From Halomicronema hongdechloris C2206 (lineage in GTDB: Bacteria; Cyanobacteriota; Cyanobacteriia; Phormidesmidales; Phormidesmidaceae): a stretch of 32,000 bases of DNA. Below, piece by piece: positions 1 through 31,652 of the stretch; the first letter of the stretch is position 1; the number at the start of each line of letters is the position of its first letter. The DNA lies in NCBI RefSeq assembly GCF_002075285.3, contig NZ_CP021983.2, forward strand, positions 1,350,001 through 1,382,000, given 5' to 3'. Under the pieces are notes generated by a model, which saw nothing but the letters and a program-made list of their open reading frames with translations, was not told the origin of the DNA and searched no databases. The translations under genes were made by a program, and so were the position numbers.

Positions 1-31
1 CTGCTGGCATTTTTCTCCTGCTGCTGCATAA

Positions 32-748: not shown

Positions 749-765
749 CAGTAGGCTTATAGAGC

Positions 766-2793: not shown

Positions 2794-2804
2794 AGTGTTC
2801 CTCC

Positions 2805-10909: not shown

Positions 10910-11023
10910 TGGGGATTAGACCACTAAGCCCTTAAATTGAGACCCTTATCTACTAAGGTGCCCACTATTATTTCTAAGTCATCAAATAAAATCCTTAAAA
11001 TTACGCAGAATTTTAATCTACCT

Positions 11024-11898: not shown

Positions 11899-11940
11899 GC
11901 TTCCAAGTCCTTGTCTTGGGTGAGCGGGTTGAGGCGATCT

Positions 11941-14018: not shown

Positions 14019-14028
14019 GAGGTGGGTC

Positions 14029-16710: not shown

Positions 16711-16762
16711 TCAGCGATTTCCAAAAAAATGAGATCGAGAAGTTGCATGGCGTTAATTTTTC

Positions 16763-16999
16763 TCAGCTGCTAGTTGTCCTTGCTTTCCTCAAATTCAGCG
16801 CGATTTCTCGAATGCCTTCAGCAATTTTTTGAAATGCTTCGTCTTGGTTGGCCCAGGTGATGACAGGCCTATGTATTTTAGGCAACATTACAAGTTGGCT
16901 AAAGGGCACACCGGCACGATCTCTTGAGTAAGATGCTGTGGCTGGCGAGTTGGGTCTGCAAAGGGGCGTCGGCAGGGATGCAGGAGAAGTAGAGGACAA
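16763..16999 (-). pseudogene. C-terminal remnant of a TIR-domain gene
   Basis: 78-aa ORF. Its last ~55 aa (VPFSQLVMLPKIHRPVITWANQDEAFQKIAEGIREIALNL) match the usual C-terminal end of bacterial TIR domains (F..L.alPk..kPvt.W.n.deAf..ia.gIr). No N-terminal TIR core is present. The ORF abuts the stop of the 1177-aa NACHT gene. Confidence 0.45.
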
Positions 17000-17009
17000 T
17001 GGTTTTTCT

Positions 17010-20000
17010 TTAGGGAATGATGCTCTGAAAGATTTCGTAGTTGTAGAACTTGCAGCGACTCTGGATAGTTGAGATCAAGCTGGGTACATACGTGAAAATA
17101 TTGTTCGAATCTGATTCTAATAAAAGTTTGCTGAGGTAGCCTATTTGATCAGGCTGAATGATTTCTTTCAATGAGGAAGCAAATTTCCAGACTTCATCAG
17201 AATTAGCTATCTTTAGAGCCTCAATTAATTCATCAAAACTATACTCATTAACCAACCTATCTATCATGATGCTGACGTTATCGCCAGTTGATTGTTCGGT
17301 AGAAAGATAATCGTGATAAATGTCATTTGAATCCCCACTGATCCTTTTAATCGCTAATCTTGCATTCTTCCGCACTTGGGAATCTTGACTACTTAACTCC
17401 GTTTTCAAAGCCGTCAGGCAGCCTCCTCCTAGCTCGCATAGTGCGCCGATAGCATCACGTGAGACTGACGAATCTTCAAATCCAATAGAGTTTCGACAAC
17501 CTAAAGCTTCAATCAAGACTGGAATACTATCAGTAGCTCCTTCCTTAGCAAGGATAAGAGCAGCGGATAATCGGATTTGAATTTTCGGATCATGAAGGGA
17601 ACGGACAAGAGCACCCCTTGATGCTTCAGTAGGTATCTTCCCCAAAGTTTCGATACAATCTTTTCGGATATCTTCGGTAGAAGACAAATCTTCTAGAATT
17701 TCAATAATAGACTGATCGAGATTCTCAACACCTAGTTTTCCTAGAGCCAAGAGAGTCTGTATATAAATTTGATTAAACTCAAACACGTTACCTGTCTCAT
17801 TAAGTTCTTTTTCAGCTCTTCTAAGATTCTCTTTAAGAAATGAAATAACGGTTGAATCGCCTATCTCACCAAGAGCCTTAATGGCAAAAGTTTTGACAGA
17901 TAAATTCTCATGTTCGTTTAGTAGAGCTTTGATCAATATTGGAATGGATTCTTTTTTGCGCTTTTGCAACAATATAGATATTGCCACTGAATGTTTAGAG
18001 CTATACTGGGTTGTTTTGGAGTCATCTTCAGTAAGAACTCTTTCAAGAACGTGCATAACCGTCAAGTCATCCACGATAATTAGGGCCGTACTAGCACTAT
18101 TGCGGACTAGGAAATCTGAGTCAAGAAATGCAACACTCAATAACGCTTCTGCTATGGTTTCAGAAATCGACTGAGTTTTTGTTACGATCTCTATCGCCCG
18201 TTTTTTGACTACAGAGTCATTACTCTTCAACGCGTTTATTAAATCATTTTCCAAAAAAACAAGCGCATCTTTCTGTAGTGAGTCACAAACAAAATTTCTA
18301 ACTTGCATGTCATCATCGAGCCAGGCTTTTGCAAGTATAGAAAGAGCTTCTTCATCACCCACATCTCTTAACGCGTGTGCAGCTGAACGTCGAGTAACGC
18401 TATCTTCGTCATGGAGTGCTATTTCTAGGAAAGGAAGAATATCTCCATACCCTTTGTTGAGTAGCAAATGAAGACTTGTTATTGCTTTACGTCTAGCTTC
18501 AAGATCTGCGTGTATGAGAGTCTCGCCTAACAGAGGTATTACCTTATCTCTATCTATGTTCTCAATGGCAAGAAGTGCTCTAAAGTGATGCTTTTCAACA
18601 CATAAAGCTTCTTGAAGTGCGGGAATAGCTGATTCATCTCCAAAACTGGCTACTTCACAAGCGGCTATCCAACGAATATCTTCGTCTGAATCTTCTAATG
18701 CCTTTTTTAGAGTATCTACAGAGCTGAGAGTATTTACTTTTCCTAAGGCTTTTATTGTTTCACTCTTTATAAAGGCTTCATCACTTTCTAGTAGTGGGCT
18801 CAAAAATGAAATAGCGGCAAAAGATTTTGTCTCTCCTAGAAGCTTGATTTTGAGTTTTAGAGGGACTGACAAATCATTGACCGAGTTTACTGCCGAAACC
18901 TGTAAGTTATGTTTTGCATTTCCAGCTAGCCTCGCTCCCAGCATTGAATCCACATCATTCATCGCCAGCTTCACTACCCGCAACGCCTGCGCTTCCTCAT
19001 CCACCAGTGCCAGCATCAGAGCAATGGGTTCAGTCCACTTCAACAGGTTGAGGTAGTCTCGCTTTAGTTCCTCATCGCTTAGGTCTGGCAATAGCCGCAG
19101 CAAATGTTCTGCCGCATAATATTCCTGGATTAGCTGGTGGCGAAACTCAATTTGGTCAGTACTGCGGTTTTGCAGCAGGTGGTACTTGAGCAGGTCATCC
19201 AAAATATCTCGAACTGGGAACTGCTCATTGGAGAAAATTCTGCTGAGTTCCTGCTCTGCCTCATCTCGGTGGATGGCTACACGAAAATCAACCGGGGTTT
19301 CTCCCTGCATCATGACTGCGGCAAGAGCTTGCAGGGCGGGTTTCCAGAGTCTGCGATCGCTCAGCGGTCTCACATCCCCTTTCAGCAGCGTCACCTCATG
19401 CTTTCGCACACTGCTGTCTTCATACATCCGGGTAAATGCCTGAAAAATCCCCGCCAGGTTAGAGGGCATTTGATGCTCAGGCGACTGCTGAAAGACCTCG
19501 CAGAGCATCCACAGCAGTAAAGGCGTTTGGCCGAACTCCCGCAAGCGATCGCTGAGTTGCCCCAGCATTGCCTCGGCCTGGTCTGACACGTAGGCGCGAA
19601 TAAACGCCTTCATTTGCTCTTCAGTCAGGGACTGCATTTCCAGTTTCTTCTCGATGCCCAGATCTCCCCCCAGGCCCAGCTCTCGGGTGGTGAAGATCAT
19701 GGGCACTTTGGAGTAGTCCTGCCGAAAGCTTGCCAGATGAGTTCTTGCCGTTTCGGATGGCAACTCATTTAACCCATCCACTAGGAGTAAAAAATGCCCC
19801 TGGCGCAGTAGCGATGTAAGAGTACTGTCATCCAGAGAAAGAGTGGGATCGTGTTTGTGGAGAAATGCCTGGATGCGATCGATGACTGAGGTTTGCCAGT
19901 AGCGCAGTTCTACCAAAATGGGAATTTGGCCTGAGCCCTGCTCCAATGCCTGAGTGGCCGTTTCCAGCAGTAGCCGAATCAACGCTGTCGATTTGCCAGA

Positions 20001-20543
20001 ACCGGGACGTCCGACTAGCAATACATGGTCATCGGCATATTTGCAAATGCCTTCCAGCACAGGTAAGCGCTCAGTTTTCTCCTGCTGCTCCTGAAGTGGG
20101 TTCGCTTCCGAAACAGCCGAATCCTTTTCTTTCGGAACAGTCTGGACCATCAAGCCAAAGTCAAAGGGGGATGGACTCTCTGACTCCGATTCCTGAATTT
20201 TGCCAGTGGCATCGGTCAGCGTGTAGTAACGCCACCACTCTTTGTAGGTATCAACCAGCGATCTCAAGTAGGACTGAAAGCCAATCTGCGCTGGCGTCTT
20301 CGAAGCTGCACTGTTCTGAATTGCCTCGACGATCGCCTGCACCGCTGCATCATTGATTTCGACGAAGGTGCGATCGCCAATCTGAATGTCTTTGCCTTCG
20401 CCGATGGTGATGTTGTACTTGCCCAATTGAAACAGCGATCGCCCTTCTTCCCCCTGTAGAGCCTGCTGCAATGCCATAATATCTGCCTTGGAGTATTCAC
20501 CTAAGGCAATGCGTTGAATGATGTCTTGCAGGCGATCGCTCAT
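17010..20543 (-). CDS. NACHT (STAND) NTPase with an N-terminal GKYN..IGEG..IGDR motif domain and a long C-terminal HEAT-repeat array
   Basis: 1177-aa ORF with ATG at 20541-20543. Walker A is GRPGSGKST (about 19986-20012) and Walker B is LLLVDGLNELP. It also has TPLLLWMLCEV and the winged-helix motif IEFRHQLIQEYYAAE. C-terminal HEAT/PBS-lyase-type repeats include DEDIRWIAACEVASFGDESAIPALQEAL, DSVTRRSAAHALRDVGDEEAL and DPKIQIRLSAALILAKEGATDSIPVLIEAL. Confidence 0.85.
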   Translation of the reverse strand: MSDRLQDIIQRIALGEYSKADIMALQQALQGEEGRSLFQLGKYNITIGEGKDIQIGDRTFVEINDAAVQAIVEAIQNSAASKTPAQIGFQSYLRSLVDTYKEWWRYYTLTDATGKIQESESESPSPFDFGLMVQTVPKEKDSAVSEANPLQEQQEKTERLPVLEGICKYADDHVLLVGRPGSGKSTALIRLLLETATQALEQGSGQIPILVELRYWQTSVIDRIQAFLHKHDPTLSLDDSTLTSLLRQGHFLLLVDGLNELPSETARTHLASFRQDYSKVPMIFTTRELGLGGDLGIEKKLEMQSLTEEQMKAFIRAYVSDQAEAMLGQLSDRLREFGQTPLLLWMLCEVFQQSPEHQMPSNLAGIFQAFTRMYEDSSVRKHEVTLLKGDVRPLSDRRLWKPALQALAAVMMQGETPVDFRVAIHRDEAEQELSRIFSNEQFPVRDILDDLLKYHLLQNRSTDQIEFRHQLIQEYYAAEHLLRLLPDLSDEELKRDYLNLLKWTEPIALMLALVDEEAQALRVVKLAMNDVDSMLGARLAGNAKHNLQVSAVNSVNDLSVPLKLKIKLLGETKSFAAISFLSPLLESDEAFIKSETIKALGKVNTLSSVDTLKKALEDSDEDIRWIAACEVASFGDESAIPALQEALCVEKHHFRALLAIENIDRDKVIPLLGETLIHADLEARRKAITSLHLLLNKGYGDILPFLEIALHDEDSVTRRSAAHALRDVGDEEALSILAKAWLDDDMQVRNFVCDSLQKDALVFLENDLINALKSNDSVVKKRAIEIVTKTQSISETIAEALLSVAFLDSDFLVRNSASTALIIVDDLTVMHVLERVLTEDDSKTTQYSSKHSVAISILLQKRKKESIPILIKALLNEHENLSVKTFAIKALGEIGDSTVISFLKENLRRAEKELNETGNVFEFNQIYIQTLLALGKLGVENLDQSIIEILEDLSSTEDIRKDCIETLGKIPTEASRGALVRSLHDPKIQIRLSAALILAKEGATDSIPVLIEALGCRNSIGFEDSSVSRDAIGALCELGGGCLTALKTELSSQDSQVRKNARLAIKRISGDSNDIYHDYLSTEQSTGDNVSIMIDRLVNEYSFDELIEALKIANSDEVWKFASSLKEIIQPDQIGYLSKLLLESDSNNIFTYVPSLISTIQSRCKFYNYEIFQSIIP
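20532..20539. repeat. HIP1 octamer GCGATCGC, one verified example of many copies
   Basis: Other copies verified by position are 20370-20377, 22979-22986 and 27737-27744. Many more are visible, for example near 1901, 2233, 19353, 19548, 23025, 23428, 27610, 27704 and 30302. HIP1 over-representation is a hallmark of many cyanobacterial genomes. Confidence 0.8.
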
Positions 20544-21084
20544 TGATAATCGGCAACGTCTAGTTTGATTACTCAGAGATGGAGAGTAGCCCTTGCTGAA
20601 CTGCTGCTCTACTTACGGCCAATCTATCTCCTCGTTTAATTTTCGAGAAATTTTGGATAGATGGTGGGAAAAATCCAGATTCTCTTTACTCAGAGCGTCA
20701 ATGACGGCACCATCCCTATCGGCAAACAGAGCAGAGGAATGAGCAAACTGGTAGTACATGCAGCAGATCAAGTAGCTCTATCCCGTCATTAACCAGAATG
20801 AGGATACAGCGAAGAAGCTACAGGAAGCAGCAGCTCTTGATACTAAAGGGTTTAACCGCTTTGGGGGCTGCGTTACGGGGGCTGTAGCGGATGCTTTTTG
20901 CCGTTCTCCCACTTCAACTTTACGAATCAATTACAACATTTGCTTGCATGGTGTATTTGTACTAAGCTAGATGCGTTTCGTTTAAGGGCTCTACACAAAA
21001 TTGGATGCATCCTTTTTTGTCCGATCGCTGATGAGCGCTCCATCAGGCATTAAACAGTGATGAACCATTGAAAGGAACTAATCC

Positions 21085-21255
21085 ATGACTCCACTTGAAC
21101 GCTTGAAAGCAGGCTTGGAAAGATCTAAAGAAAACGGATGCGAAGACACTAGTACGGCTAATCAGTCTCAGCAAGATTATGAGCAACGGGCTGATGAAGC
21201 TGATCGCCAGTTACGTGAAAAGCAAGCTCGCGAATTGAAGAAGTTCTGGAGCTAA
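21085..21255 (+). CDS. Small charged hypothetical protein (56 aa)
   Basis: ATG at 21085 follows AAAGGA, and TAA is at 21253-21255. The translation is MTPLERLKAGLERSKENGCEDTSTANQSQQDYEQRADEADRQLREKQARELKKFWS. It falls below the ORF-track cutoff and has no recognised family. Confidence 0.25.
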   Translation: MTPLERLKAGLERSKENGCEDTSTANQSQQDYEQRADEADRQLREKQARELKKFWS

Positions 21256-21392
21256 ATTGAAGCTTGGCTGAGTTTTAGCCATCTGCCTCCTTAGATTAGG
21301 AAACCTGTCTCCTCGGTAATTTGCTGTGATGTAATAGCCGAGGAGCCGGATTTCTTTATGAAAACTAAATACAGAAGCATCCTGTTTATCGT

Positions 21393-21629
21393 TTGGGCTC
21401 TAGTAGAGGGGATTGGTCTTTAATATACCTATCCTTTGGAGCCATGCCACCCGAAGAGAATTTTGAGCAGCAACTTAGAAAGCTAGTTTTTGAAGATAAC
21501 TGTGATCTGGACGATGCTTTTACTCAAGCAAAAAATGATCACCAAAACCTTGCTGGAAAAGCCGACAAGCTTTTCGAGATCAAGCAAAAAGTCGCTTTAG
21601 ATCTTAAAAATTTTAAGCGCAAGTCTTGA
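21393..21629 (+). CDS. Small charged hypothetical protein; probable start at 21444 gives 61 aa
   Basis: The internal ATG at 21444 is preceded by GGAG (MPPEENFEQQLRKLVFEDN...). The product is predicted helical and Lys/Glu-rich. No family recognised. Confidence 0.3.
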   Translation: MGSSRGDWSLIYLSFGAMPPEENFEQQLRKLVFEDNCDLDDAFTQAKNDHQNLAGKADKLFEIKQKVALDLKNFKRKS

Positions 21630-21677
21630 CGGCAGATCAATCTGGATGACATGCAAATACAATTTCCAATTCTGTCG

Positions 21678-22706
21678 CTAGTCGATGTCTATGTGTTCGT
21701 AGTCAGGCAAACGCTCAATTAGATAAGCAATGTATCCCTGTAGCTGAACAACACTATGTGAAGGCAAGTTTTCTGGAAGCAGATTCAGCCCCAGATAGTT
21801 CAATGCAAATATATAGAGTTCATCTTCAATAACTACTGGTGTAACAGGGTTTTCTAAACTATTTTTACGTCCCCAAGTCAAGCAATGACCAAGGTTTTCT
21901 AGAAATTGGTCTAGCGTAAAGTAAAACGCATCTATTTTTTCTTGAGACGCACTATTCTGAATGTCAGAATAGTGCTCTAAAGTATATTTTCCCAAAGACC
22001 TAGCTAAACCATTAGCCCGCTTCCGATCTAGCCAGCGGGCTACGACTTTGCCATCTTCTAATTCCTCGCGGAGCTGTTGGAGTAGCTTGATTTGTTCTTG
22101 AAGACACGTTTGGGAACGAGCTTCCGCGAGACTATTTTCCTGGCTGCTTTCGAGAGCTTGCAATTTTGCCGTCAGATTGTCTACCCCAGCTTGGAGGAGG
22201 ATGTCGGCCTTAGCGGCAAGGGCAGACAATTCCTGCTGCACTTCCATGAGCTGCATGACCTTTCCTTTGACTTGATTGAAATCTGCTAGGTGTTGCTGGG
22301 GAAGGTGTCCTAATTTACGGAGTTCCTCTAGAGCCGCCAGACGAGTATTGAGATGATCTGCCAGTTGAGGTTCAAAAACAAGGGTAGGTAAAGGGGGATC
22401 CTCCAGGGGTGTTTCAGCTAGCTCAGTAGCGGAAGGAACACTCTGTACCAGCAAAGTTGCCTGAACAATCGCGCGAATATCGGCGGCAGTAGGGCCATAG
22501 TAGCGATGTCCCACCTGAACATCAGTCCCCTCGCCAATGACCGTATTGAATTTCCCATCCTGGGAAACAGATTGATTGACATTGGATGGGGGTAGTGGAG
22601 TTAACTGGCCATTTCTGGCTAGAGGCTTTTCAGTCGATTCAGATGTATCACCCTGTTTATCCAGCATCTTTGTTTCTAGCGAAAAAAGCTGATGTGTCCC
22701 GAGCAT
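21678..22706 (-). CDS. P-loop-less protein with an N-terminal GKFN..IGEG..VG motif, a coiled coil and an unknown C-terminal domain. Candidate adaptor or effector of the NACHT cluster.
   Basis: 342-aa ORF; the start may instead be Met14. The motif QDGKFNTVIGEGTDVQVGHRYYGPTAADIRAIVQ lies at nt 22503-22556. A heptad-like stretch covers about aa 120-220. The gene is divergently transcribed from the 874-aa NACHT gene, 94 nt away. Confidence 0.6.
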   Translation of the reverse strand: MLGTHQLFSLETKMLDKQGDTSESTEKPLARNGQLTPLPPSNVNQSVSQDGKFNTVIGEGTDVQVGHRYYGPTAADIRAIVQATLLVQSVPSATELAETPLEDPPLPTLVFEPQLADHLNTRLAALEELRKLGHLPQQHLADFNQVKGKVMQLMEVQQELSALAAKADILLQAGVDNLTAKLQALESSQENSLAEARSQTCLQEQIKLLQQLREELEDGKVVARWLDRKRANGLARSLGKYTLEHYSDIQNSASQEKIDAFYFTLDQFLENLGHCLTWGRKNSLENPVTPVVIEDELYIFALNYLGLNLLPENLPSHSVVQLQGYIAYLIERLPDYEHIDID

Positions 22707-22800
22707 AACCCAGGAATTTGACCATAGCCAACTGTATGATCTTTAAGGGGAGTCTTTAAGCTTGCGTCGTCAACTTTTCTTAACACCCGATTAGCTTCGC

Positions 22801-25425
22801 ATGCCAATACCTGACGAGTTACTGCCGTTGATAGACCAAATCCTCAATCGCATTGAGCAAGATGGGGCAGCTTTGAAGAGTTGGCGGCAAACGGAAGATG
22901 GCCAGAAAATCATTCAGTATGTGGTGCAAATTGGTAAATACAACACCACTGTAGGCGAAGGAAAAGATATTTCAATTGGCGATCGCCTGGATCGAGCTTT
23001 GCTTGAGGAAGTGCGTAACTTGCTGCGATCGCAACTCTCGTCTCAAGTAGTAGAAATCAACTGGTCGCAAGTCAGCAGATTGCTTTTAGAACGCCAAGTT
23101 CAACGTCTGACCTCAAATCCTTTAACCCATGCCGAGGGGGTCACCTATCGCACTGAACAGGTGTATGTGCCACTGGGGTTGGTGGAGCGCAAGAAGGTGT
23201 CGCGTCACCGGGAGGATGTGCCCCCAGAGCAAGGCTCGTTGCTGTACAAGGAGACGGAGATTTCTCAGAAGTTTGAACAAGCAGTGTTTCTGGAGCAGGT
23301 GTTACGACAGGGGCAGAGCCCTCGGAGTGGGGGGCGACGGATTGTGATCATTGGGGAGCCAGGGGCGGGCAAGACGACGCTGTTGCAGCAGATGGCCTGG
23401 TGGGTGACGGAAAACATTGAAGGGGCGATCGCGATTTGGGTGTCGTTAGCGGGTTTGCAGGGGCGAGCTCTGGAGAATTATCTGCTAGAGCAGTGGTTAC
23501 CGGCAGTAGTGCAGCAGCAGGGACAGGCGGAAGCTTCGACACAAGTGAAGGATGCGCTAGTGGCGCAGTTTCGCGCGGGGCGGGTATGGCTGTGGCTTGA
23601 TGGGGTGGATGAGATGCCAGTAGCAGCGGGTAATCCGCTGAATGAGGTTGAGCGACAGGTGAGATTGGGAGGTTTGTTGGCGCAGGCGCGGATCGTGTTG
23701 ACCTGTCGGTTGAATCTGTGGGACGGAGAACGTCATGCGCTTGATACTTTCGACGTTTATCGGACGTTGGAGTTTACTTATCCGAAGCAGGTAGAGCAGG
23801 TCGTCGGGCAGTGGTTTGGGGCGTTGCCAGAAGCCCAGGTAGGGCAGGCAGAGCGGTTGTGTGAGGCATTACGGCAACCGGGAAAAGAGCGACTGCGAGA
23901 TTTAGTGAAGAATCCACTCCGGCTAACTTTGTTGTGTTTCAACTGGTATTTGGGAGAGGGAACGCTACCGGAAACGAAGGCTGGATTGTATGAGCAGTTT
24001 GTGGCGGATTTTTATGAGTGGAAGCGGGAGCGGTTTCCGACGACAGCGGAGCAACGAAGGCAGTTAAATGCGGCACTGGGTGAGTTGGCACGGGAGGCAA
24101 TCGATAAGGAGGAAACCCGGTTCCGACTGCGGCATGATTTTGTGTGCAAATTTTTGGGCGAACCGGATGAGCCTGATTCGTTGTTTCAGATGGCATTGCG
24201 GTTGGGATGGCTGAATCAAATCGGTGTGGATGCGGACAATCGGCGAAAGGCAGTGTATGCGTTTTTCCATCCCACGTTTCAGGAATATTTTGCAGCATCG
24301 ATTATAGTGAAGCAGTTTCAGGAAAATAGCATCACCTTTGAGCAATTGAAAACCGATATTCTTAGTAAATATTGGCAAGATGACTCATGGCATGAAGTTC
24401 TACTACTAGTTTGTGGATTGGTCAGCAACAAGATCTCCACTAAAATAATTGATTTTTTCATTGATCATTTTGAGTCGGGCAAGAATTTAATACGTCAAAA
24501 TGAGAACCAATCAATTTTCCAACAAGCCAGCCTTTTCGAACCCATAGAAGACTTTGAAAATAAAAATTTTGATAATGATTTTGAGAACGAGGATTTTAGT
24601 GTCCCTGAATATTTCAGTAGAAATTACAACTTTAATAGTAGTAGCCTTGCTTTTGCAATCTCCATTTCCCAAGAGATAAATAATGGCCACAATAGTAAGA
24701 TGACTCGTCAAAATTTAATTGCTCGCCTCGAAGATCATCTTGAATATCTTGAGGACTTTGTTGAAAGCCTTGGGAACTATACTTGGGATAACCTTACTGC
24801 AGACTATCTTAATCGTATATTTAGCGATATAGCTATTTTGGGACAAGGTTATAAAGAAGTTTTCAACTATCTTGCAAGTAAAGCCTGCGATGCTGAATTA
24901 CAAGAAATATGTTCAGCATCAATCAGAGCACTTGCAGAACATTGGAATAATGATGAAATGTTACTGGAATTATTAGTGAAAGCTGCTATTAAAAACCGTT
25001 TCGGCACATCAAAGTTTTCAATCAATGATCCAAATCTGGTGACTAGCCCTCGTAAGATAGCGCTAGAAGCTCTTTTTATTCGTTATCCAAATCATGCAAA
25101 AACCATACAAGCTTTAAAGGATCGCGCAATCAATGATCCAGACGAACCAGTTCGATGGTATGCAGCCCAAGCCTTGGGCCAATTAGCGAAAAGCACTCCT
25201 GAAATCATGGATTTTTTATTTTCAGTTGTTAAAAATTCTCGCTATGACAGCAAATATAATTACCGAGTTAGTCCACGCCATACAATTTTAGGCGCGATAG
25301 TTTTGCACTGTTCAAATCATTTCCAAGCTTTTGCTCTTTTATCAGATTTGGCACTTAATGATTCTAATGAAGAACTACGTCTATGGGTGAAAGAACAACT
25401 TAAAAACTGGGAATCACCAGTGTGA
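22801..25425 (+). CDS. NACHT (STAND) NTPase with an N-terminal GKYN..IGEG..IGDR motif and a C-terminal helical/HEAT-like sensor region
   Basis: 874-aa ORF. Walker A is GEPGAGKTT (23353-23376) and Walker B is WLWLDGVDEMP. It also has NPLRLTLLCF and FFHPTFQEYFAA (about 24265-24300). C-terminal HEAT-like units are DPDEPVRWYAAQALGQLAKS and NDSNEELRLWVKEQL. Confidence 0.85.
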   Translation: MPIPDELLPLIDQILNRIEQDGAALKSWRQTEDGQKIIQYVVQIGKYNTTVGEGKDISIGDRLDRALLEEVRNLLRSQLSSQVVEINWSQVSRLLLERQVQRLTSNPLTHAEGVTYRTEQVYVPLGLVERKKVSRHREDVPPEQGSLLYKETEISQKFEQAVFLEQVLRQGQSPRSGGRRIVIIGEPGAGKTTLLQQMAWWVTENIEGAIAIWVSLAGLQGRALENYLLEQWLPAVVQQQGQAEASTQVKDALVAQFRAGRVWLWLDGVDEMPVAAGNPLNEVERQVRLGGLLAQARIVLTCRLNLWDGERHALDTFDVYRTLEFTYPKQVEQVVGQWFGALPEAQVGQAERLCEALRQPGKERLRDLVKNPLRLTLLCFNWYLGEGTLPETKAGLYEQFVADFYEWKRERFPTTAEQRRQLNAALGELAREAIDKEETRFRLRHDFVCKFLGEPDEPDSLFQMALRLGWLNQIGVDADNRRKAVYAFFHPTFQEYFAASIIVKQFQENSITFEQLKTDILSKYWQDDSWHEVLLLVCGLVSNKISTKIIDFFIDHFESGKNLIRQNENQSIFQQASLFEPIEDFENKNFDNDFENEDFSVPEYFSRNYNFNSSSLAFAISISQEINNGHNSKMTRQNLIARLEDHLEYLEDFVESLGNYTWDNLTADYLNRIFSDIAILGQGYKEVFNYLASKACDAELQEICSASIRALAEHWNNDEMLLELLVKAAIKNRFGTSKFSINDPNLVTSPRKIALEALFIRYPNHAKTIQALKDRAINDPDEPVRWYAAQALGQLAKSTPEIMDFLFSVVKNSRYDSKYNYRVSPRHTILGAIVLHCSNHFQAFALLSDLALNDSNEELRLWVKEQLKNWESPV

Positions 25426-25489
25426 ATTCTGATGTTTTCTGGCTACATTCCAAATCTGCTAAGCGTTATTCGATTTTCCAATTCAAAAG

Positions 25490-27922
25490 CTAATTATTGT
25501 CAGTTTTTTTGTGGCTTCGTTTTTCAATTTCGGCGATTGGCAACAGTAATGTATCTACAATCTCTCGCTGGACTCCATAATTTACTGAAGCATTCCTATT
25601 TAGACAATCCATTAACAGCTTATTAGCTTCATAGTAATTCTGAAGTATTTGTTTTTGTTTCCAATTCGCTTGCCAGTTACTGCCTAGATCCCGATGATTA
25701 TCTAAAATCAAATGAATCTGCCGTGACCAATCATCATGATTGGCTGCCCACCAGTCATCTAGATATCCCCATCGTGAGTGTTGCTCATAAGCAGGTGAGT
25801 CTTTAGATAGATAATATTCAGATGGAGGCAATAAGCTCAGAATAACATTATTTATGTACTGGTTGGTTTCTACGTCTAAAGGGTATGTACTATAAAGGCA
25901 CAGGGGTGCAGATCTCTCAAATTCTGCTTCATCGTCGGGTCGCCAATTTCGATTCGGTAAATCAGCTTTTTGAAGATGAATATTAATTTTTTTGTCCTCA
26001 AATTTATTGATAAAGAGAAAAACTGCAAAATCGTAAGTTGAACTATTGGGACGAGAGAAAAAGCCATACAGTAAGTCATATAATGAACGATATTCAGAGT
26101 TGAGATTTTGGTCGATTTTGGCAAATAGATGATTGACAGGATCATTTTCAAGGTTTTGAACAAAAGCCAGGAAAATAGCTCTCAAGGCAGCTAATTTATA
26201 ATTTTCCTTTGTAGCCTTTGCTTTATGAGATATCCATGATAGAAACGAGTTTATTTCAAGCTCATTAGCAACTAATTTATCTATATAATTTTTCATTGAG
26301 GCTAACAAATTGTTTGCGTCAGACAGTAGCTCGATCGTAAGAAGAAACACCTCTTGCCAGTGCTTGTTAATGCACTGAATGCTCATATTTTCAAAGTCTT
26401 TTGTTGCACAAAACCATTGCGCTACTAAATATTCTTGAAAAGTTAGATGTGAAAATGTCCAAACCTTCTGGCTTCTCTCAAGCAATAACCCATGCTGAGC
26501 TTCGATTGCCCGCAATACCCCCCGACTCTCCCGCAACCCAATTCCCAAAAACTCCGCAATATACTCCTCAATCTCCGCTTGCTCAAACAACACATACTGC
26601 TCCTGCTCAAACTTCTTCACGGCCAGATAGCTTAATAGCCCCAGCTTCCGCTCCACCGACAAATCGCGATAAATCTCATCCCGCTCAATCTCCCGCGACT
26701 TATCCCACTGCTCCAGCAGTAACTCCAATCCTTCTTCGTAGAGTTTCGACCTCTTCGAATAAAACTTTCCCGACTGGTGAAACACTGCACAAGTCAAACT
26801 CAGCAAAATTGGAGTAATTGCCAATTCCCGAATCGACTTGTTCTCCTCCCGAAACAATTGTTCCAAAAATGCTGTTGTCTTAGCCTGACCTGCGGTGAGA
26901 TCCCCACAAACCGTCTGAAACCAATGCTCGGCAAACGCTCTTACCTGCGGCTCATTAAAATCCGCCACTTCTACGTAATCAAACCGCTCAAACCGCGACT
27001 CCTGGCTCTGCGTCCGGCATGTCACAATTATCTGCACCTGCGGATAAGCTCGCGCAAACCGCTTGATTTGCTTAGCGATTGCCTGCCCATCTGCCCCCGT
27101 CACCTCATCCAGCCCATCCAGCAGCACCAGGGATCGGCCTTCACCCAGCACCAGCCGCACAGCCTGATCCGACAACTGCCAGCATCGTTCCAAATACCGC
27201 TCTATTGAGTAACCAACTTCACGCCCATCCTCCACAAACTCCCGCAGCCGAATTAACACCGGAATTCGGTGCGTCTGCAAATTGCCCGCATTACACTCCG
27301 TCACTACCCGCTGCAAATACGTCGTCTTTCCCGAACCCGGCTTGCCCACCACCATCAGGTTGGTATCCCTGTCCAGCACCTTCAGTCCCGACACCCGTTG
27401 CCGTTCCTTACCCAAGCCCATGCGATCCAAACCGCGATAGCTGGGATTCTGGCTGAAGTCTTGCCACAGATCTACTAACTCCGATCGCCGATTGCTACTC
27501 ACCTCCTCCAGAATATTCACATCCACAAACAACTCGCCCAGTGGCACCCAACGATCCACCCCCCATAGCGGCATCGTGCCGTACAAGCGCTGAATGTCAT
27601 TGTGGATGCGCGATCGCACCTGCTGCACGAGCTCGTCTACTGACGTAACTTCTGCTGAATGAGACGGTTCTGACTTGTTTATCTCTTCTCGAATGGCTTG
27701 AGCGATCGCCTGGATATTCTCCTCCGTCAATTCGAGGCGATCGCCAATATGTATCTGCCCCAGGGCTTGCTGGATATTGACTGCGTACTTACCGACTTGC
27801 AGCACTGAAGGGGAGCAATCGCCTTCACCAAAAAAATCTCGCAGCGTTTGTAGATCAGCTTCAGTATGGTCGCCTTTAGCAATGCGCTCCAGGATAATTG
27901 GCAAATCCTCAAACTGAGCCAT
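25490..27922 (-). CDS. NACHT (STAND) NTPase with the N-terminal GKY...IGDR motif and a C-terminal all-helical domain of the type common in cyanobacterial NACHT proteins
   Basis: 810-aa ORF with ATG at 27920-27922. Walker A is GKPGSGKTT (27323-27346) and Walker B is LVLLDGLDEV. It also has TPILLSLTCAVF and FSHLTFQEYLVA (about 26429-26450). The C-terminal end QNYYEANKLLMDCLNRNASVNYGVQREIVDTLLLPIAEI matches a recurrent cyanobacterial NACHT C-terminal helical module, from memory. Confidence 0.85.
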   Translation of the reverse strand: MAQFEDLPIILERIAKGDHTEADLQTLRDFFGEGDCSPSVLQVGKYAVNIQQALGQIHIGDRLELTEENIQAIAQAIREEINKSEPSHSAEVTSVDELVQQVRSRIHNDIQRLYGTMPLWGVDRWVPLGELFVDVNILEEVSSNRRSELVDLWQDFSQNPSYRGLDRMGLGKERQRVSGLKVLDRDTNLMVVGKPGSGKTTYLQRVVTECNAGNLQTHRIPVLIRLREFVEDGREVGYSIERYLERCWQLSDQAVRLVLGEGRSLVLLDGLDEVTGADGQAIAKQIKRFARAYPQVQIIVTCRTQSQESRFERFDYVEVADFNEPQVRAFAEHWFQTVCGDLTAGQAKTTAFLEQLFREENKSIRELAITPILLSLTCAVFHQSGKFYSKRSKLYEEGLELLLEQWDKSREIERDEIYRDLSVERKLGLLSYLAVKKFEQEQYVLFEQAEIEEYIAEFLGIGLRESRGVLRAIEAQHGLLLERSQKVWTFSHLTFQEYLVAQWFCATKDFENMSIQCINKHWQEVFLLTIELLSDANNLLASMKNYIDKLVANELEINSFLSWISHKAKATKENYKLAALRAIFLAFVQNLENDPVNHLFAKIDQNLNSEYRSLYDLLYGFFSRPNSSTYDFAVFLFINKFEDKKINIHLQKADLPNRNWRPDDEAEFERSAPLCLYSTYPLDVETNQYINNVILSLLPPSEYYLSKDSPAYEQHSRWGYLDDWWAANHDDWSRQIHLILDNHRDLGSNWQANWKQKQILQNYYEANKLLMDCLNRNASVNYGVQREIVDTLLLPIAEIEKRSHKKTDNN

Positions 27923-28119
27923 ACGTGACGAATCCCGTCAACTTTGAAATACAACAGCGAAAGCTGCCTGAATCATAGCCTTTTGCCCGCTTTGCCGTGA
28001 CTCCGATGGTTTGTGAAGTGGCGCATTGCTTATTGGACAGAGTGCGATCGTGACATTCCATTTTAGAGCAACTATGAAGTTCGGAAAACACAGCGGACCT
28101 ACTCAGGTACAGTGCTGAG

Positions 28120-30417
28120 CTACTTTAGGGGCATGGTGGCAAAATGCTCTTGCACGAGCTTATGAATAAATCGATAGCGCCCGCCAACGCGCTGCAATAA
28201 GAGACGCTCTGTGCAGTGGTTGAGGAAGCGAGCGTAGTTCCAAGGACCATTTTCACTTCTGAAGAGCAACAACCTAAGCACGAAATGCTGAATAAGAGGC
28301 CATCCAATTGATGCAAAACTCATTAAAAATCCACAAATTGCTCCAAAAAAAACTATTTTCGGAACCTCTCTGGCAATAATATTCGAGTCTGGGCTGAGGA
28401 AAACAAATCCAAAAACAAATAGCCCAAGTAAAGCATTAAATAAAAAACATGAGGCTAGAAGTAGTTTCAGATTTTGACGAATTCCATGATTGGGATAAAT
28501 CTTGAATTCTATGGGCTTCCTTAGGCCTTTAAATACTCCAAACATAATCCCAAAAACCATCCATAATGCTGCCATCACAAAGATCCAAACAAAAAACATA
28601 CTGAATAAATCAAATAATTGTGTTCCTACGATTGATCCTCCATCGTGCTGAGGTGATTTAATGACAAAAAGTCGAGGTGAGTAAAGCCATGCAAATAAGG
28701 CAGTTACTAAGCTCACAAGACCAAAGCCGGCACCTGATAATGAGCCCAAGAGCACCCATTTTTTTAGCAGCCTTGGTTTGATTTCTCGAATAGAAAAGGC
28801 TTCAGTAAACTCAATGCTAGTTTGACTATTCTTGAATCCCAAGTAAAAACCTGCCATAGATGCTAACAAAGCCCCCCCCAAAGCCGCACGAATGAAGGTG
28901 AAATGCATAAGCTCAGCCAATGTTACCGAAATTCTTGCATTGGAAGAAGAAGAGACTCCCCAGAGAATGGTTGAGGTTTCAGGAGAAATCGAAGTTAACA
29001 AGCCAAAAAGTAGCAAGGATAAGAAATAGTGAATCGAACCAGTAAATACACTAAACAGAATGGAAGTTGTCAATATATATTTTCTGTGCTGGTTTGGTTT
29101 TAAAGTGCTTGCCTGTACTTCTTCAATTGAAAAATCATCAATAAAAGACTTGCCAAGCATTTGTGCAAGCCATACAAGCTGTAATCGAATTGTCTTAGCT
29201 GTAGGATGGCTACCTATTAAATAGTCCTTACTATTTATGACTTCATGAAGTCGTCGTTCCACATAAGCGTCCAGCAAGTACTCCATCCTGGCTTGGGTGG
29301 TTTGCTTTTGCTGCCAACGTTCTGGCTCTATACCATCATTGGCAAGTAAGGCCACACTCAACAGTAGTGGCGTGCGTACCAAAGCGAGGAGTTCTGCATC
29401 CTGGCACAGGGTTTCCCACAAGTCCTGACGGCTTAATGAGGTCAGGTAGCTTTGCAATTGCTCATCGGTCAGAGGTTCCAGGCAAATGGCTCCATTGAGT
29501 TCCAGTTTGGTATCGTACAGGTCGTATTCTTCCATGCGGCTGCACACCAGCATCCCCGTTGGCCCCTCCCCAGATCGCAACCATTCGTTGATTGCTTGCA
29601 CCACAGATTCTTGTCGCTCAGGGGGCAGTTCATCTAGACCATCGAGTAAGGGCAGCAACGTTTTCTGCGTTAGCCAGGATTTCCCCAGCTTGGGCGACAC
29701 CCCGTACTTCAGCCTGAGTTCGTTCACCAGCCAGTCTGTCAAGCTCTGCTTCGCACTTTGCCAGGACGACAGGTTTACCATCACCGGAATCGGCTGTTCT
29801 GGGTCATCATTCGCCCGCTGAATCAGCACCGCCGCCAGATCCAGCATGGTGGTGGTTTTGCCAGCGCCGGGGTTACCCAGAATCAGCAACCTGCCTCCCA
29901 CCTCCCGCCGATCAAACACCTCAGCAACGTGAGTCCCTGGGGGTAGTTGCTTGGGCTTCCGGTCAGCAGTACGAATCTGGCTATCCCAGGGACGGCTCAC
30001 CTGGGTGCGGTCTTCGGCCATATCGAGCCGCACCAGAATGGCATTGTGTAGCGACTGTCGCAAGCGATCTTCTACCTCTGTCCATACGGCAGCAATCAGC
30101 GTTTTTTCGTTGCCGTCCTTACGGGTGGGTTGCGGCTGCGTTTCTGGCAATCCATAAAAGTAGGCGCTTGAGGCTGCCAGCACCTCCTGCAATACCAGTT
30201 TTAAGGTTTCTGCATCCATCCCCTGATGAATCACCACCCGGTTGTTATCACCCAAGATGTTGTCACTTCCCGTGACAATCTTTGCGCCAGTTGCATCGCG
30301 GGCGATCGCCACCGCTCCCTGACCAGACGCACTGACCTCCGCCAGTAGCGCCTGAAGGTTTTCCTGAGGGAGCTCCTTCAGTGCCGCTTTCAGGTTTTCC
30401 AGGCTATCTGACATCAA
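28120..30417 (-). CDS. NACHT (STAND) NTPase with an N-terminal Gly/Asn-rich motif and a roughly 6-helix transmembrane block inserted before the terminal winged-helix motif
   Basis: The ORF track starts at TTG 30415-30417; ATG at 30412-30414 is the more likely start, 8 nt after the caspase stop. Walker A is GNPGAGKTT (29854-29877) and Walker B is LLPLLDGLDELP, followed by RTPLLLSVALL. Hydrophobic segments span aa ~447-718 (nt 28264-29079). The final 36 aa contain the canonical GGRYRFIHKLVQEHFA motif. Confidence 0.8.
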   Translation of the reverse strand: MMSDSLENLKAALKELPQENLQALLAEVSASGQGAVAIARDATGAKIVTGSDNILGDNNRVVIHQGMDAETLKLVLQEVLAASSAYFYGLPETQPQPTRKDGNEKTLIAAVWTEVEDRLRQSLHNAILVRLDMAEDRTQVSRPWDSQIRTADRKPKQLPPGTHVAEVFDRREVGGRLLILGNPGAGKTTTMLDLAAVLIQRANDDPEQPIPVMVNLSSWQSAKQSLTDWLVNELRLKYGVSPKLGKSWLTQKTLLPLLDGLDELPPERQESVVQAINEWLRSGEGPTGMLVCSRMEEYDLYDTKLELNGAICLEPLTDEQLQSYLTSLSRQDLWETLCQDAELLALVRTPLLLSVALLANDGIEPERWQQKQTTQARMEYLLDAYVERRLHEVINSKDYLIGSHPTAKTIRLQLVWLAQMLGKSFIDDFSIEEVQASTLKPNQHRKYILTTSILFSVFTGSIHYFLSLLLFGLLTSISPETSTILWGVSSSSNARISVTLAELMHFTFIRAALGGALLASMAGFYLGFKNSQTSIEFTEAFSIREIKPRLLKKWVLLGSLSGAGFGLVSLVTALFAWLYSPRLFVIKSPQHDGGSIVGTQLFDLFSMFFVWIFVMAALWMVFGIMFGVFKGLRKPIEFKIYPNHGIRQNLKLLLASCFLFNALLGLFVFGFVFLSPDSNIIAREVPKIVFFGAICGFLMSFASIGWPLIQHFVLRLLLFRSENGPWNYARFLNHCTERLLLQRVGGRYRFIHKLVQEHFATMPLK

Positions 30418-30422
30418 ACCAC

Positions 30423-31469
30423 TTACTCCTTGTCAGCTTGATCAGCACCAAAAGTGTCACCAATGTGCAAACCCTGGATATTGTCTCCCATGCTGATGTT
30501 GTACTTACCTTTTTGATTCACAGTCTGCACTCGGTTATTGTTGCCAACGATGTTGCCCTGTCCAGTAACAATCGTTGCCCCCTGCGCGTTCTGAACCGCA
30601 ACTGCGCCATCTCCTGAAGCTGCGATCGTGGTTTGAATCATTTGGCCGTTCAATTCACCAGGCTGTGACTCAATCCGAGGCTTGGATGCTAACTCAGGCG
30701 GCAGGCCCTTCGGCTGCAGATCGCCTCCGGCATAGTACGCCAGCACAAAGTTATCGGCCTTCTCAATGTCCAGCACAGGGTGTTGTTTATCGCTGGTCAA
30801 TGTCGGCACAATGCGGCTGGCATACATCGCTAAATCCGTCGCCCGAATGTAGCCATCTTGCTGGGTGGCTCCTTCCCCACATAATCCCTTCATCAGGGCA
30901 TAGGTAAAGGCACTGTAGGGTTCTCCGGCATAGGACAACTCATCTGGCCGTGAGGAGCCAATCATGATGCGTCCGCCTCCTTTGGCAAACATCCTTTGCG
31001 CTTCCGGCGGCAGCGGAGCTTTGGTCGCTGCAAAGGCAGAGACATCACTTAATCCGCCAGCATGGCAGCAATCCAGCATCACCAGCAGTTTCTGCGCCGG
31101 AATCTCGCGCAGGTAATCCACAAACTCACTGCCGCTAATGGCGGTCTCATCCAAAGCTTCAGTGTTGTAGCCGTAGGGCATTAAAAAATAAGACTTAAAC
31201 GGCTTTTGCAGTTGGTGGCCATGTCCTGAGAAATAAATCAGCACCGTCGAATCGTCGTCGGTTGAATTCGCTAAGGTCTCCAAAGTTTGCAAAATCTGGC
31301 TGCGGGTTGCCTTTTCCCCCGTAAGGAAATGCACCTGGCTTTCTGGATAGGCACAGCGCTCGGGGTCTTGCAGAACCTTCGCCAGACCTTTAGCATCGGT
31401 GGCGGTAGTCGGCAAATCGCCACCGACTCCAATCACGCAAGCATGCCCTTGTTCAAAAAGGTGACTCAT
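30423..31469 (-). CDS. Caspase-like peptidase C14 (orthocaspase/metacaspase-like) with a C-terminal Gly/Asn-rich motif tail
   Basis: 348-aa ORF with ATG at 31467-31469. The His-Cys dyad context is LIYFSGHGHQ and VMLDCCHAGG. The C-terminal ~70 aa are non-protease: AASGDGAVAVQNAQGATIVTGQGNIVGNNNRVQTVNQKGKYNISMGDNIQGLHIGD. Confidence 0.85.
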   Translation of the reverse strand: MSHLFEQGHACVIGVGGDLPTTATDAKGLAKVLQDPERCAYPESQVHFLTGEKATRSQILQTLETLANSTDDDSTVLIYFSGHGHQLQKPFKSYFLMPYGYNTEALDETAISGSEFVDYLREIPAQKLLVMLDCCHAGGLSDVSAFAATKAPLPPEAQRMFAKGGGRIMIGSSRPDELSYAGEPYSAFTYALMKGLCGEGATQQDGYIRATDLAMYASRIVPTLTSDKQHPVLDIEKADNFVLAYYAGGDLQPKGLPPELASKPRIESQPGELNGQMIQTTIAASGDGAVAVQNAQGATIVTGQGNIVGNNNRVQTVNQKGKYNISMGDNIQGLHIGDTFGADQADKE

Positions 31470-31652
31470 TTCTGTTTGCCCTCAACTGGAAAATCCTTCG
31501 AGTCTTCCGCCATTATGACCTCGCCGCTAAGAAGGGTTAGCGTTTTTTAGCAATAAAATTTAGTCTTACGATGACTTAGCCATGTTTTTTTGCAGGCAGG
31601 AGTCGTGAGCTGTAGTCATAACAATTGAGATCGCCCTTCAACCCATCTCCCC

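Follow-up and report, generated by a model that had tools for sequence, protein, structure and literature searches.

Introduction

The modularity of bacterial NLR-like proteins is well known, and the gain of new sensor specificities has mostly been inferred from domain architectures. EAD-coupled conflict systems are defined by the presence of the same effector-associated domain (EAD) on a core NTPase and on a separately encoded neighbor (Kaur et al. 2020, PMC7159879). These systems and the bNACHT/Avs proteins (Kibby et al., bioRxiv 10.1101/2022.07.19.500537) share an adaptor or effector part, a NACHT NTPase, and a variable C-terminal sensor with the proteins encoded by four genes of the cyanobacterium Halomicronema hongdechloris C2206 (order given as Nodosilineales). 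The four genes are located in the right half of a 32,000-nucleotide (nt) stretch of the chromosome, called the window here, together with the genes for a 342-amino-acid (aa) EAD10 protein and a caspase-like peptidase. They encode EAD10-NACHT proteins of 1177, 874, 810, and 765 aa and are named after these lengths; the 874-aa protein corresponds to XM38_013150 with 100% identity.

The closest analogue is found in a different group of proteins, the polymorphic toxins. In two publications on Escherichia coli Rhs proteins (PMC7259588; PMC3482391), the core is described as GC-rich and the core-extension as AT-rich, and this difference has historically been taken as a sign of foreign origin. A preliminary description of the window, made from its sequence alone, had proposed the same for the NACHT genes, namely that sensor modules from a lower-GC donor had been fused in frame to a constant, GC-rich NTPase part. 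Comparison with relatives indicates that the sensors are almost certainly replaced in frame, as cassettes at fixed junctions, and that the composition is very probably tied to their turnover rather than to the host or to a single donor.

Results

The four NACHT genes contain sharp composition switches

GC content at third codon positions (GC3) was analyzed with a single-changepoint model, and the likelihood ratio (LR) was compared with 200 codon shuffles per gene. GC3 falls from 0.60 to 0.32 at codon 538 of the 1177-aa gene (about position 18929), from 0.58 to 0.28 at codon 518 of the 874-aa gene (about 24355; the changepoint for all bases is at 24277), from 0.60 to 0.31 at codon 488 of the 810-aa gene (about 26458), and from 0.63 to 0.36 at codon 383 of the 765-aa gene (about 29268). 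The LRs of the four switches range from 58 to 95 and were reached by none of the shuffles (0/200), and those of eight control genes of the window do not exceed 14.7. The 342-aa gene has no significant switch (LR 5.4, reached by 51/200 shuffles), nor has the caspase-like gene (LR 1.8). The hand counts of G+C in eight 60-nt lines, on which the preliminary description was based, were all exact (37/60 vs. 20/60 in the 874-aa gene, 35/60 vs. 24/60 in the 1177-aa gene, 35/60 vs. 14/60 in the 810-aa gene, and 38/60 vs. 22/60 in the 765-aa gene). The mosaic region had been given as 17010-29280; it extends to 30417.

At fourfold-degenerate sites, GC3 drops from 0.66 in the N-parts to 0.30 in the C-parts, compared to 0.62 for the remaining genes of the window. 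Synonymous usage thus changes at the switch, as had been claimed, and amino-acid composition alone cannot explain the drop. The C-parts also contain more N, I, F, K, and S and less Q, R, E, and G, and GC content at first and second codon positions is somewhat lower. From N- to C-parts codon choice shifts for nearly every amino acid, e.g., from 0.09 to 0.30 for ATA and from 0.07 to 0.24 for AGA. Among the leucine codons, CTG falls (0.39 to 0.06) and TTA (0.09 to 0.25) and CTT (0.04 to 0.25) rise as described, but TTG, which was thought to rise, falls as well (0.30 to 0.17).

The winged-helix motif FxHxxxQEY is located at aa 467-475 of the 1177-aa protein, 488-496 of the 874-aa protein, and 490-498 of the 810-aa protein. 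Its codons end at positions 19119, 24288, and 26429, respectively, and the switches lie relative to it as had been stated, about 63 codons past the motif in the 1177-aa gene. No GC3 gradient was found on approaching the junctions. A GC-rich NTPase part is joined in frame to an AT-rich module in all four genes, but that of the 765-aa gene lies within the gene and is followed by a GC-rich tail. The return of GC3 to 0.57 in this tail (codons 721-750) excludes a simple 3'-end effect.

Elsewhere in the window, the gene for an 1847-aa DEAD/MZB/DUF559 helicase has a milder GC3 drop from 0.60 to 0.46 at codon 1658 (LR 14.7; 1/100 shuffles). It covers the last 190 or so codons (5366-5935) and begins roughly at the start of the DUF559 endonuclease-like domain. 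Further AT-rich blocks of the window are 1-820 and 12991-13550. A relative's locus (L087, 10875-13106) contains a gene for a 743-aa NB-ARC-TPR protein with a switch from 0.53 to 0.34 at codon 407, and GC3 switches may thus extend to other STAND families.

Homology to relatives breaks at the switches

The boundaries were tested by comparing a blind multi-changepoint segmentation of raw GC content with the blastn edges against independently fetched relatives, whose loci are denoted by L numbers. The segmentation yielded the AT-rich blocks 16681-18920, 24281-26470, which comprises the 874-aa and the 810-aa cassettes together, and 28251-29250. The backbone is 80-90% identical to relatives on the nucleotide level, and this homology breaks at the edges of the GC segments: the homology edges (18921-34, 24296, 26407-27, 28245, and 29227) are at most 60 nt away from the blind GC edges. 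For the 1177-aa gene, homology of 86-88% (nt) to L081, L083, and L085 begins at 18921-18934. For the 810-aa gene, homology to L065, L024, L081, L086, and L087 begins at 26407-26427. In the 874-aa gene, homology to L065, L032, and L024 stops at 24296, only 8 nt past the HPTFQEY codons. Conservation runs through ...FHxTFQEY(F/L)AA and is then lost within about five codons (22 and 13 genes). More than 100 cyanobacterial proteins are 60-85% identical to the 874-aa protein, over about residues 1-500 only.

Each cassette is preceded by the N-module, and conserved sequence also lies beyond it, either as a short C-terminal tail, as an intergenic patch, or as the neighboring gene. Tails of about 20, 26, and 42 codons follow the cassettes of the 1177-, 810-, and 765-aa genes, i.e., three of the four; therefore, the cassettes are flanked by conserved sequence on both sides. 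In the 1177-aa gene the distal flank consists of the tail and a downstream intergenic patch (16790-16922, in L081, L083, and L085), the tail of the 810-aa gene (25490-25567) is conserved with L081, and that of the 765-aa protein is 75% identical (aa) to L087.

The insert of the 765-aa protein is strongly hydrophobic and has about 330 residues with six to eight candidate transmembrane segments at aa 452-710 (Kyte-Doolittle scan). The region is homologous without a break in L086 and has no match in L087. The N-modules of P0241-P0244 match that of the 765-aa protein with about 92% identity, and only P0241 of these four has the insert in common. Among relatives the insert behaves as the exchangeable unit. 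The motif FIHKLVQEH lies behind the insert at the extreme C-terminus (aa 750-758), a placement that seems atypical for a STAND NTPase. A distant 765-type relative in a Nostoc sp. (L090, 6001-7995) has a uniform GC3 of 0.30 as in its host, apart from a GC-rich tail of about 50 codons (GC3 0.68; C at third positions, C3, 0.53).

N-modules and cassettes have incongruent histories

N-modules, called the chassis here, that are 85-92% identical (fourfold-site identity 0.7-0.84) carry C-parts with about 30% aa identity and saturated synonymous sites. The 874-type N-modules of Coleofasciculus, Symploca, Symplocastrum, and Tychonema, for example, are 86-92% identical with a fourfold-site identity of 0.80-0.84, and the C-parts of the same genera are 30-35% identical and saturated. 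Residues 1-540 of the 1177-aa protein are 85-90% identical to L081 and L085 (fourfold-site identity 0.7-0.8), and from residue 541 onwards identity is about 30% at saturated synonymous sites; five 1177-type genes on 85-90% identical chassis have five distinct cassettes (about 30% aa identity). The same pattern was found for the 810-aa gene versus L081 and L086 and for the 765-aa gene versus L087.

Conversely, related cassettes are found on different chassis. The nearest relative of the 1177-aa cassette, in L091 (56%), is connected to a chassis of only 40-50% identity, and a 1177-type continuation sits atop an 874-type chassis in L009 and L011. The 874-aa cassette is shared with L081/P0002 only (77% aa identity) and is unrelated to the C-parts of all other genes of its clade (clade A). 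The 810-aa cassette is common to a Microcoleus metagenome-assembled genome (L032; 83% nt identity, with a synonymous divergence, dS, of 0.49 vs. 1.00 for the N-module) and unrelated to those of L081, L086, L087, L065, L003, and L004. Here the N-part joins L032 with L065 (94% nt identity) and the C-part joins L032 with the window (83%). The two halves thus have incongruent histories, and the proposed exchange of sensors by in-frame recombination is borne out by the homology breaks at the GC switches and by the unrelated C-parts. The constancy of the chassis did not hold. Compared with the syntenic locus L081, dS is 1.81 for the 874-aa N-module (22801-24296 vs. 4707-6200 of L081), 0.47 for its sensor, and 0.5-0.65 for the remaining backbone, indicating that in this case the chassis allele was exchanged and not the sensor.

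The ratio of nonsynonymous to synonymous divergence (dN/dS) of shared cassettes is 0.26-0.27, compared to 0.06-0.16 for N-modules, which means that the cassettes are functional and that their proteins evolve two to four times faster. The four NACHT proteins of the window have a pairwise identity of only about 25%; therefore, the genes are old paralogues and not recent copies, and homogenization or gene conversion between recent paralogues was rejected as the origin of the GC-rich halves.

The window contains no direct repeats of at least 40 nt, no truncated NACHT or sensor fragments, and no tandem or direct repeats, which argues against recent intragenic repeat shuffling, a silent cassette, or a repeat pair of a diversity-generating retroelement (DGR). 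Its sole long repeat is a 65-nt inverted repeat (20370-20434/22922-22986, 77% complementary), which represents the EAD10-coding regions of the divergent 1177-aa and 874-aa genes, each with an IGDR motif and a site of the highly iterated palindrome HIP1. Neither the plasmid nor the phage searches found a reservoir of cassettes: positions 13000-32000 had no megablast match among plasmids, the only plasmid matches of the 874-aa and 810-aa cassettes in tblastn were distant NACHT sequences (at most 44%), and the variable center had no blastn match among phages. A metagenome scan revealed no donor of the 1177-aa cassette (best match 56%), and several metagenome loci match only residues 609-637 or so of this query, with 62-73% identity.

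Composition follows turnover in all host backgrounds

A set of 105 NACHT genes was grouped by N-module (at least 85% identity) and by C-part (at least 60%). Clusters with many different C-parts have GC3 drops of 0.20-0.31 and 0-0.3 HIP1 sites per kb of C-part; those with a single C-part have drops of 0.03-0.05, with one exception, and 1.2-2.3 HIP1 sites per kb. At the gene level the drop is 0.21 with turnover (n = 38) versus 0.06 with stable pairing (n = 34; Mann-Whitney p = 8e-8), and at the cluster level turnover and drop are correlated (Spearman rho 0.64, p = 0.025); these p values, like the comparisons with the hosts below, are optimistic because related genes were treated as independent. 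In L093, L094, and L099, NACHT-HEAT genes with the same fold show no drop. The AT-rich, HIP1-poor state belongs to high-turnover cassettes wherever they are found.

Relatives of the 874-aa gene were gathered from 80 genome loci. Many of these loci include a convergent 810-type partner, and the pair is syntenic in many of them. Host background was estimated from the GC3 of flanks of up to 6 kb, which may be island DNA themselves. In the 874-type clade A (n = 18), N-modules exceed the flanks by 0.14 (17/18 above), and C-parts are 0.10 below them (17/18 below); in the 810-type clade B (n = 12) the differences are +0.14 and -0.09 (11/12 below). In a third, distant clade, N- and C-parts differ by only 0.056. 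The mosaic was found in more than 30 relatives with host GC3 values of 0.25 to 0.8, in independent assemblies that include complete genomes. Relatives of the 1177-aa gene switch at codons 520-565 and those of the 765-aa gene at codons 332-382, in hosts with a gene GC3 of about 0.5-0.8. In Nodosilinea nodulosa, the 1177- and 765-type N- and C-parts have GC3 values of 0.65/0.49 or 0.68/0.40, all below the host value of 0.72-0.85. The GC3 of N-modules thus exceeds that of the host in low-GC genomes and falls short of it in Nodosilinea, and both modules hold their own composition almost irrespective of the host. Because the same drop occurs across this range of hosts, the composition is not accounted for by a lower-GC donor. 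This central part of the preliminary description could not be upheld in the form given: cassettes lie below their hosts even in low-GC genomes (by 0.10 on average), and none of the tested host backgrounds lacked the drop. Of the two observations that together were to count against the preliminary description, a shared GC drop in relatives was made, but congruent phylogenies of the two halves were not seen.

Where synonymous sites differ between the window and its relatives, the window is GC-richer in the N-modules (107:61, 61:44, and 63:48) and has no such excess in the cassettes (27:33, 18:25, and 33:28); the cassettes are thus without a sign of drift towards host GC. The N-modules of the 874- and 810-aa genes have an excess of G at third positions (G3 0.46, C3 0.12-0.13; skew 0.5-0.6); in the 1177- and 765-aa genes it is less pronounced (skew 0.17-0.24). 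It recurs in every host of the 874-/810-type relatives (L003-L024, L032, L065, L086, and L087; G3 0.37-0.46), where G3 and C3 of flanking genes are about equal (about 0.29 each). The GC-rich half does not look native either, as its G3 excess is not host-like and its GC3 departs from the host in both directions.

According to earlier reports HIP1 enhances natural transformation, and a role as uptake signal has been proposed. The four genes contain 12 HIP1 sites, and it was correctly described that all of them (12/12) are in the GC-rich parts. Their absence from 4.9 kb of cassette is, however, not significant when the lower GC content is considered (P(0) 0.06-0.5), and composition predicts a 4.6-fold deficit, so that within the window the absence was rejected as an independent sign of foreignness. 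The N-modules are enriched in HIP1 (12 observed vs. 3.3 expected, 3.7-fold, P = 1.6e-4), with 2.1 sites per kb versus 0.56 elsewhere in the window and up to 2.9 in high-turnover relatives; the sites fall into the codons of the conserved peptides (G/S)DR, AIA, and RS. In 38 kb of cassette sequence there are only three sites. In stably paired clades the distribution is reversed, with 0-0.17 sites per kb in N-modules and 1.2-2.3 in C-parts.

Domain content and genomic neighborhood

Coordinates and domain scores are collected in Table 1. All four NACHT proteins score above the Pfam gathering score for NACHT (26.7 bits; the EAD10 cut-off is 24.1 bits) and contain a Walker A motif (GxxGxGK[ST]): GRPGSGKS at aa 178 (1177-aa protein), GEPGAGKT at aa 185 (874), GKPGSGKT at aa 193 (810), and GNPGAGKT at aa 181 (765). 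They have the tripartite NLR layout of an N-terminal EAD10, a central NACHT, and a distal HEAT, weak HEAT, NCH2, or multi-transmembrane part. As EAD10 is found on the NTPases and also on the separately encoded 342-aa protein, the genes are, by their domain content, members of the NACHT/EAD-coupled conflict systems (Kaur et al. 2020, PMC7159879). The domain search detected no recognizable enzymatic domain in the 342-aa protein, and no EAD10 at E <= 0.01 in the 348-aa caspase-like protein, which matches Peptidase_C14 only. L081, L083, and L003 have an EAD10 gene in syntenic position. The caspase-like, 765-aa, and 810-aa genes form a string in this order, and L086 and L087 have the same caspase-NACHT-NACHT order.

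Table 1. Genes of the EAD10-NACHT locus and modules of the four NACHT genes.
Feature	Position	Strand	Properties
1177-aa EAD10-NACHT gene	17010-20543	-	EAD10 76 bits, NACHT 48.6 bits, HEAT_2 164 bits (Pfam)
1177-aa N-module: EAD10, NACHT, winged helix FRHQLIQEY (19145-19119) and about 63 codons	18921-20543	-	GC3 0.60, 5 HIP1
1177-aa HEAT-repeat sensor cassette, AT-rich	17070-18920	-	GC3 0.32, no HIP1
1177-aa conserved C-terminal tail, last ~20 codons	17010-17069	-	blastn patch 16938-17069 vs. L081, L083, L085
342-aa EAD10-bearing protein, presumed EAD10-coupled effector/adaptor	21678-22706	-	EAD10 34.1 bits
874-aa EAD10-NACHT gene	22801-25425	+	NACHT 43.5 bits; weak HEAT in C-part
874-aa N-module: EAD10, NACHT, winged helix FFHPTFQEY (24262-24288)	22801-24296	+	GC3 0.58, G3 0.46, C3 0.12, 3 HIP1
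874-aa sensor cassette, AT-rich, weak HEAT	24297-25425	+	GC3 0.29-0.30
810-aa EAD10-NACHT gene	25490-27922	-	NACHT 73.2 bits; NCH2 83.6 bits
810-aa sensor cassette, AT-rich, C-terminal NCH2 helical domain	25490-26410	-	GC3 0.32
810-aa N-module: EAD10, NACHT, winged helix FSHLTFQEY (26455-26429)	26411-27922	-	GC3 0.59, G3 0.46, C3 0.13, 3 HIP1
765-aa EAD10-NACHT gene	28120-30417	-	EAD10 44.4 bits, NACHT 31.2 bits
765-aa conserved GC-rich C-terminal tail, winged-helix-like FIHKLVQEH (28170-28144)	28120-28245	-	homology to L087 through 28245
765-aa internal cassette, AT-rich multi-pass hydrophobic insert	28246-29226	-	GC3 0.23-0.43; homology gap vs. L087
765-aa N-module: EAD10, NACHT P-loop region	29227-30417	-	GC3 0.63, 1 HIP1; 89% nt identical to L087
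Caspase-like peptidase (C14), 348 aa, presumed effector	30423-31469	-	Peptidase_C14 69.2 bits

The 1.1-kb spacer between the 1177-aa and 342-aa genes (20543-21678) is about 80-86% identical (nt) to L083 and L085. Two small opposite-strand genes of 56 and 61 aa are called there in these loci and are matched by open reading frames (ORFs) of the window (21085-21255 and 21393-21629, both on the plus strand). The left part of the window (1-16710) is a defense and mobility island with genes for a SACS-like protein, a UvrD-like helicase, GmrSD, a TrwC relaxase, the 1847-aa helicase, and an actin-like (ParM-type) partition protein, a content that suggests an integrated conjugative or plasmid-derived region.

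Discussion

The reading that we favor, with reasonable rather than firm confidence, is that the locus represents a conserved NLR-like backbone with four replaceable cassettes, the composition of which follows their turnover. Cassettes would be replaced via homologous recombination in the conserved flanks, after transfer of DNA between cyanobacteria. They would belong to an old and very diverse pool that is kept by diversifying selection from phages. As a single cassette would seldom meet a homologous partner and would often be replaced, the AT-biased mutation pressure of flexible and mobile DNA would dominate, and its residence would be too short for equilibration with host GC and for the build-up of HIP1 sites, while stably paired sensors would do both. 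This proposed cause of the AT bias is tentative. By analogy to the family (PMC7159879), the cassette may bind a cue of an invader, upon which NACHT would oligomerize and EAD10 would recruit effectors; the EAD10-bearing 342-aa protein and the caspase-like peptidase are candidates.

Several points weigh against the turnover reading. The 765-aa cassette has apparently co-diverged with its backbone (dS 0.66 vs. 0.39-0.46) and is still AT-rich, and this would be explained equally well by forces acting in situ as by a pool. The stable cluster of L010, L012, and L026 retains a drop of 0.22. The turnover reading offers no explanation for the G3 excess of the N-modules. The lower GC content accounts for only about a 2.6- to 4.6-fold part of the HIP1 deficit of cassettes, and this scarcity is puzzling if cassettes only hop between HIP1-rich cyanobacterial chromosomes. 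Among the compared sequences no cassette has three close copies, the number needed to polarize its substitutions. The use of flanks as host background and the treatment of related genes as independent, described above, belong here too. Last, exchange is read from sequence comparison, and no event of transfer or recombination has been directly observed.

It might be argued that the composition has a trivial cause, i.e., amino-acid composition or fold, position at the 3'-end, or a chimeric assembly. The deviating amino-acid usage of the C-parts and their lower GC at the other two codon positions would fit, but the fall at fourfold-degenerate sites, the internal AT-rich block of the 765-aa gene with its last 45 or so codons back at the GC-rich level, NACHT-HEAT genes of the same fold without a drop, the nearly flat distant clade, and the recurrence in more than 30 independent assemblies make this exceedingly improbable; amino-acid, fold, and 3'-position explanations are refuted by the fourfold-site and internal-cassette results.

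The import of each sensor in frame from a lower-GC genome, e.g., of the Nostocales or Oscillatoriales, would make AT-richness and HIP1 absence an un-drifted donor signature. The host-like composition of stably paired sensors would agree with it, as would the GC3 of the cassettes (0.19-0.36), which is near the Nostocales background of 0.25-0.35, and the cassette shared with the Microcoleus genome (flank GC3 0.44), which is more closely related than its chassis. However, in that very genome the shared cassette has a GC3 of 0.33 compared to 0.44 of the host, and cassettes lie below the host in nearly all would-be low-GC donors. Candidate donors are rich in HIP1 and the cassettes are not, the window cassettes have no GC excess at differing synonymous sites, and no close copy of the 1177-aa or 874-aa cassette was found in genomes, metagenomes, plasmids, or phages. 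The identical pattern in four divergent paralogues and their many relatives is also difficult to reconcile with separate imports. A simple donor is thus possible for individual cassettes, notably that of the 810-aa gene, but is rather improbable as a general cause. Slightly better placed, though still unlikely, are different regimes of mutation, repair, or selection acting in situ on the two parts of each gene, such as GC-biased gene conversion on the conserved arms, interference by recurrent selection, which weakens selection on GC3 or codons in the cassettes, or a sensor selected to have rare codons and low expression. The nearly host-independent composition of both modules would be expected, as would the shift towards host GC at differing sites of N-modules only, the co-divergence of the AT-rich 765-aa cassette, and the higher dN/dS and more frequent rare codons ATA and AGA in cassettes. 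Yet gene conversion is strand-symmetric, while the excess in the 874-/810-aa N-modules is confined to G3, with a C3 no higher than in cassettes, and together with the missing gradient towards the junctions this disfavors it as the sole cause. The N-modules of Nodosilinea are below their host, and stably paired HEAT sensors of the same fold are host-like, so that no requirement of fold or expression is evident. A further idea, which we regard as speculative and less probable than either a donor or forces in situ, is an evolved platform for cassette exchange, in which the HIP1-dense arms would be handles for uptake and homology that share sensor alleles phylum-wide, and the cassettes would have their own host-independent AT "floor". 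If it were true, the lack of drift from this floor towards host GC would stem from a process other than ordinary gene transfer. The opposite HIP1 distribution in stably paired clades speaks against it.

The locus shows the acquisition of sensors at nucleotide resolution, with fixed in-frame junctions, flanks on both sides, unrelated sensors on near-identical chassis, and chassis alleles that are exchanged as well. Where NLR genes are unannotated, the edges of sensors and the junctions of recombination can be located cheaply by a GC3 changepoint combined with a break in HIP1 density. Low GC content is not a proof of a low-GC donor, as the cassettes of all hosts are AT-rich and the drop becomes larger with turnover. 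The composition jump is the mark of an exchangeable cassette, not the gift of one low-GC donor.

Comparison with known systems

The locus shares with EAD-coupled systems the presence of EAD10 on the NTPases and on a stand-alone neighbor, an adjoining caspase-like peptidase, and paralogues with different sensors. It differs in that an effector enzyme with the cognate EAD was not found, as no EAD10 was detected on the caspase-like protein. The publications on bNACHT and EAD systems (PMC7159879; bioRxiv 10.1101/2022.07.19.500537) treat sensor diversity as domain architecture, while here replacement is seen on the nucleotide level. Neither GC content nor nucleotide-level replacement of cassettes at a fixed junction is mentioned in the text of PMC7159879 and PMC13581612. 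In those main publications on these systems that were searched, the compositional mosaic and its connection with turnover have apparently not been described.

NLR-like sensors diversified by DGRs (PMC10907252) also combine a constant NTPase with a diversified sensor in filamentous cyanobacteria, and P0102, a relative of the 874-aa protein, has an FGE-sulfatase-type C-terminus. Here, in contrast, whole cassettes are replaced instead of being targeted by hypermutation. No reverse transcriptase domain was detected in the ORFs of the window with at least 150 aa, nor was a pair of template and variable repeats found; therefore, the locus is not a DGR target.

O-antigen and capsule loci have a variable low-GC center between conserved arms, and their alleles are swapped by recombination in the flanks. 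They exchange whole genes, whereas the crossovers discussed here lie inside ORFs and keep the frame. The reading of their center as a gift of a foreign low-GC donor shares its weakness with the present case.

The polymorphic toxins (Rhs, CdiA, and MafB) remain the best match, with conserved N-terminal cores, hypervariable C-terminal modules that recombination exchanges, and an in-frame junction at a conserved peptide. Sharp junctions, many unrelated C-parts on near-identical cores, and the combination of a GC-rich core with an AT-rich extension are common to Rhs and the NACHT genes. However, the variable parts here are of the sensor type (HEAT, NCH2, and multi-transmembrane) and not toxins, the proteins are cytoplasmic STAND NTPases that are not secreted, and three of the four genes keep a conserved tail. 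The window contains neither a downstream immunity gene, with intergenic gaps of 64-300 nt that are free of ORFs, nor orphan or silent cassettes. Therefore, the locus is placed outside the Rhs/polymorphic-toxin family, and the likeness is one of evolutionary genetics only. For Rhs tips and O-antigen loci the question of donor versus turnover is decades old, and the many paralogous, differently behaving clades of cyanobacterial NACHT genes represent a natural experiment on the origin of low GC content.

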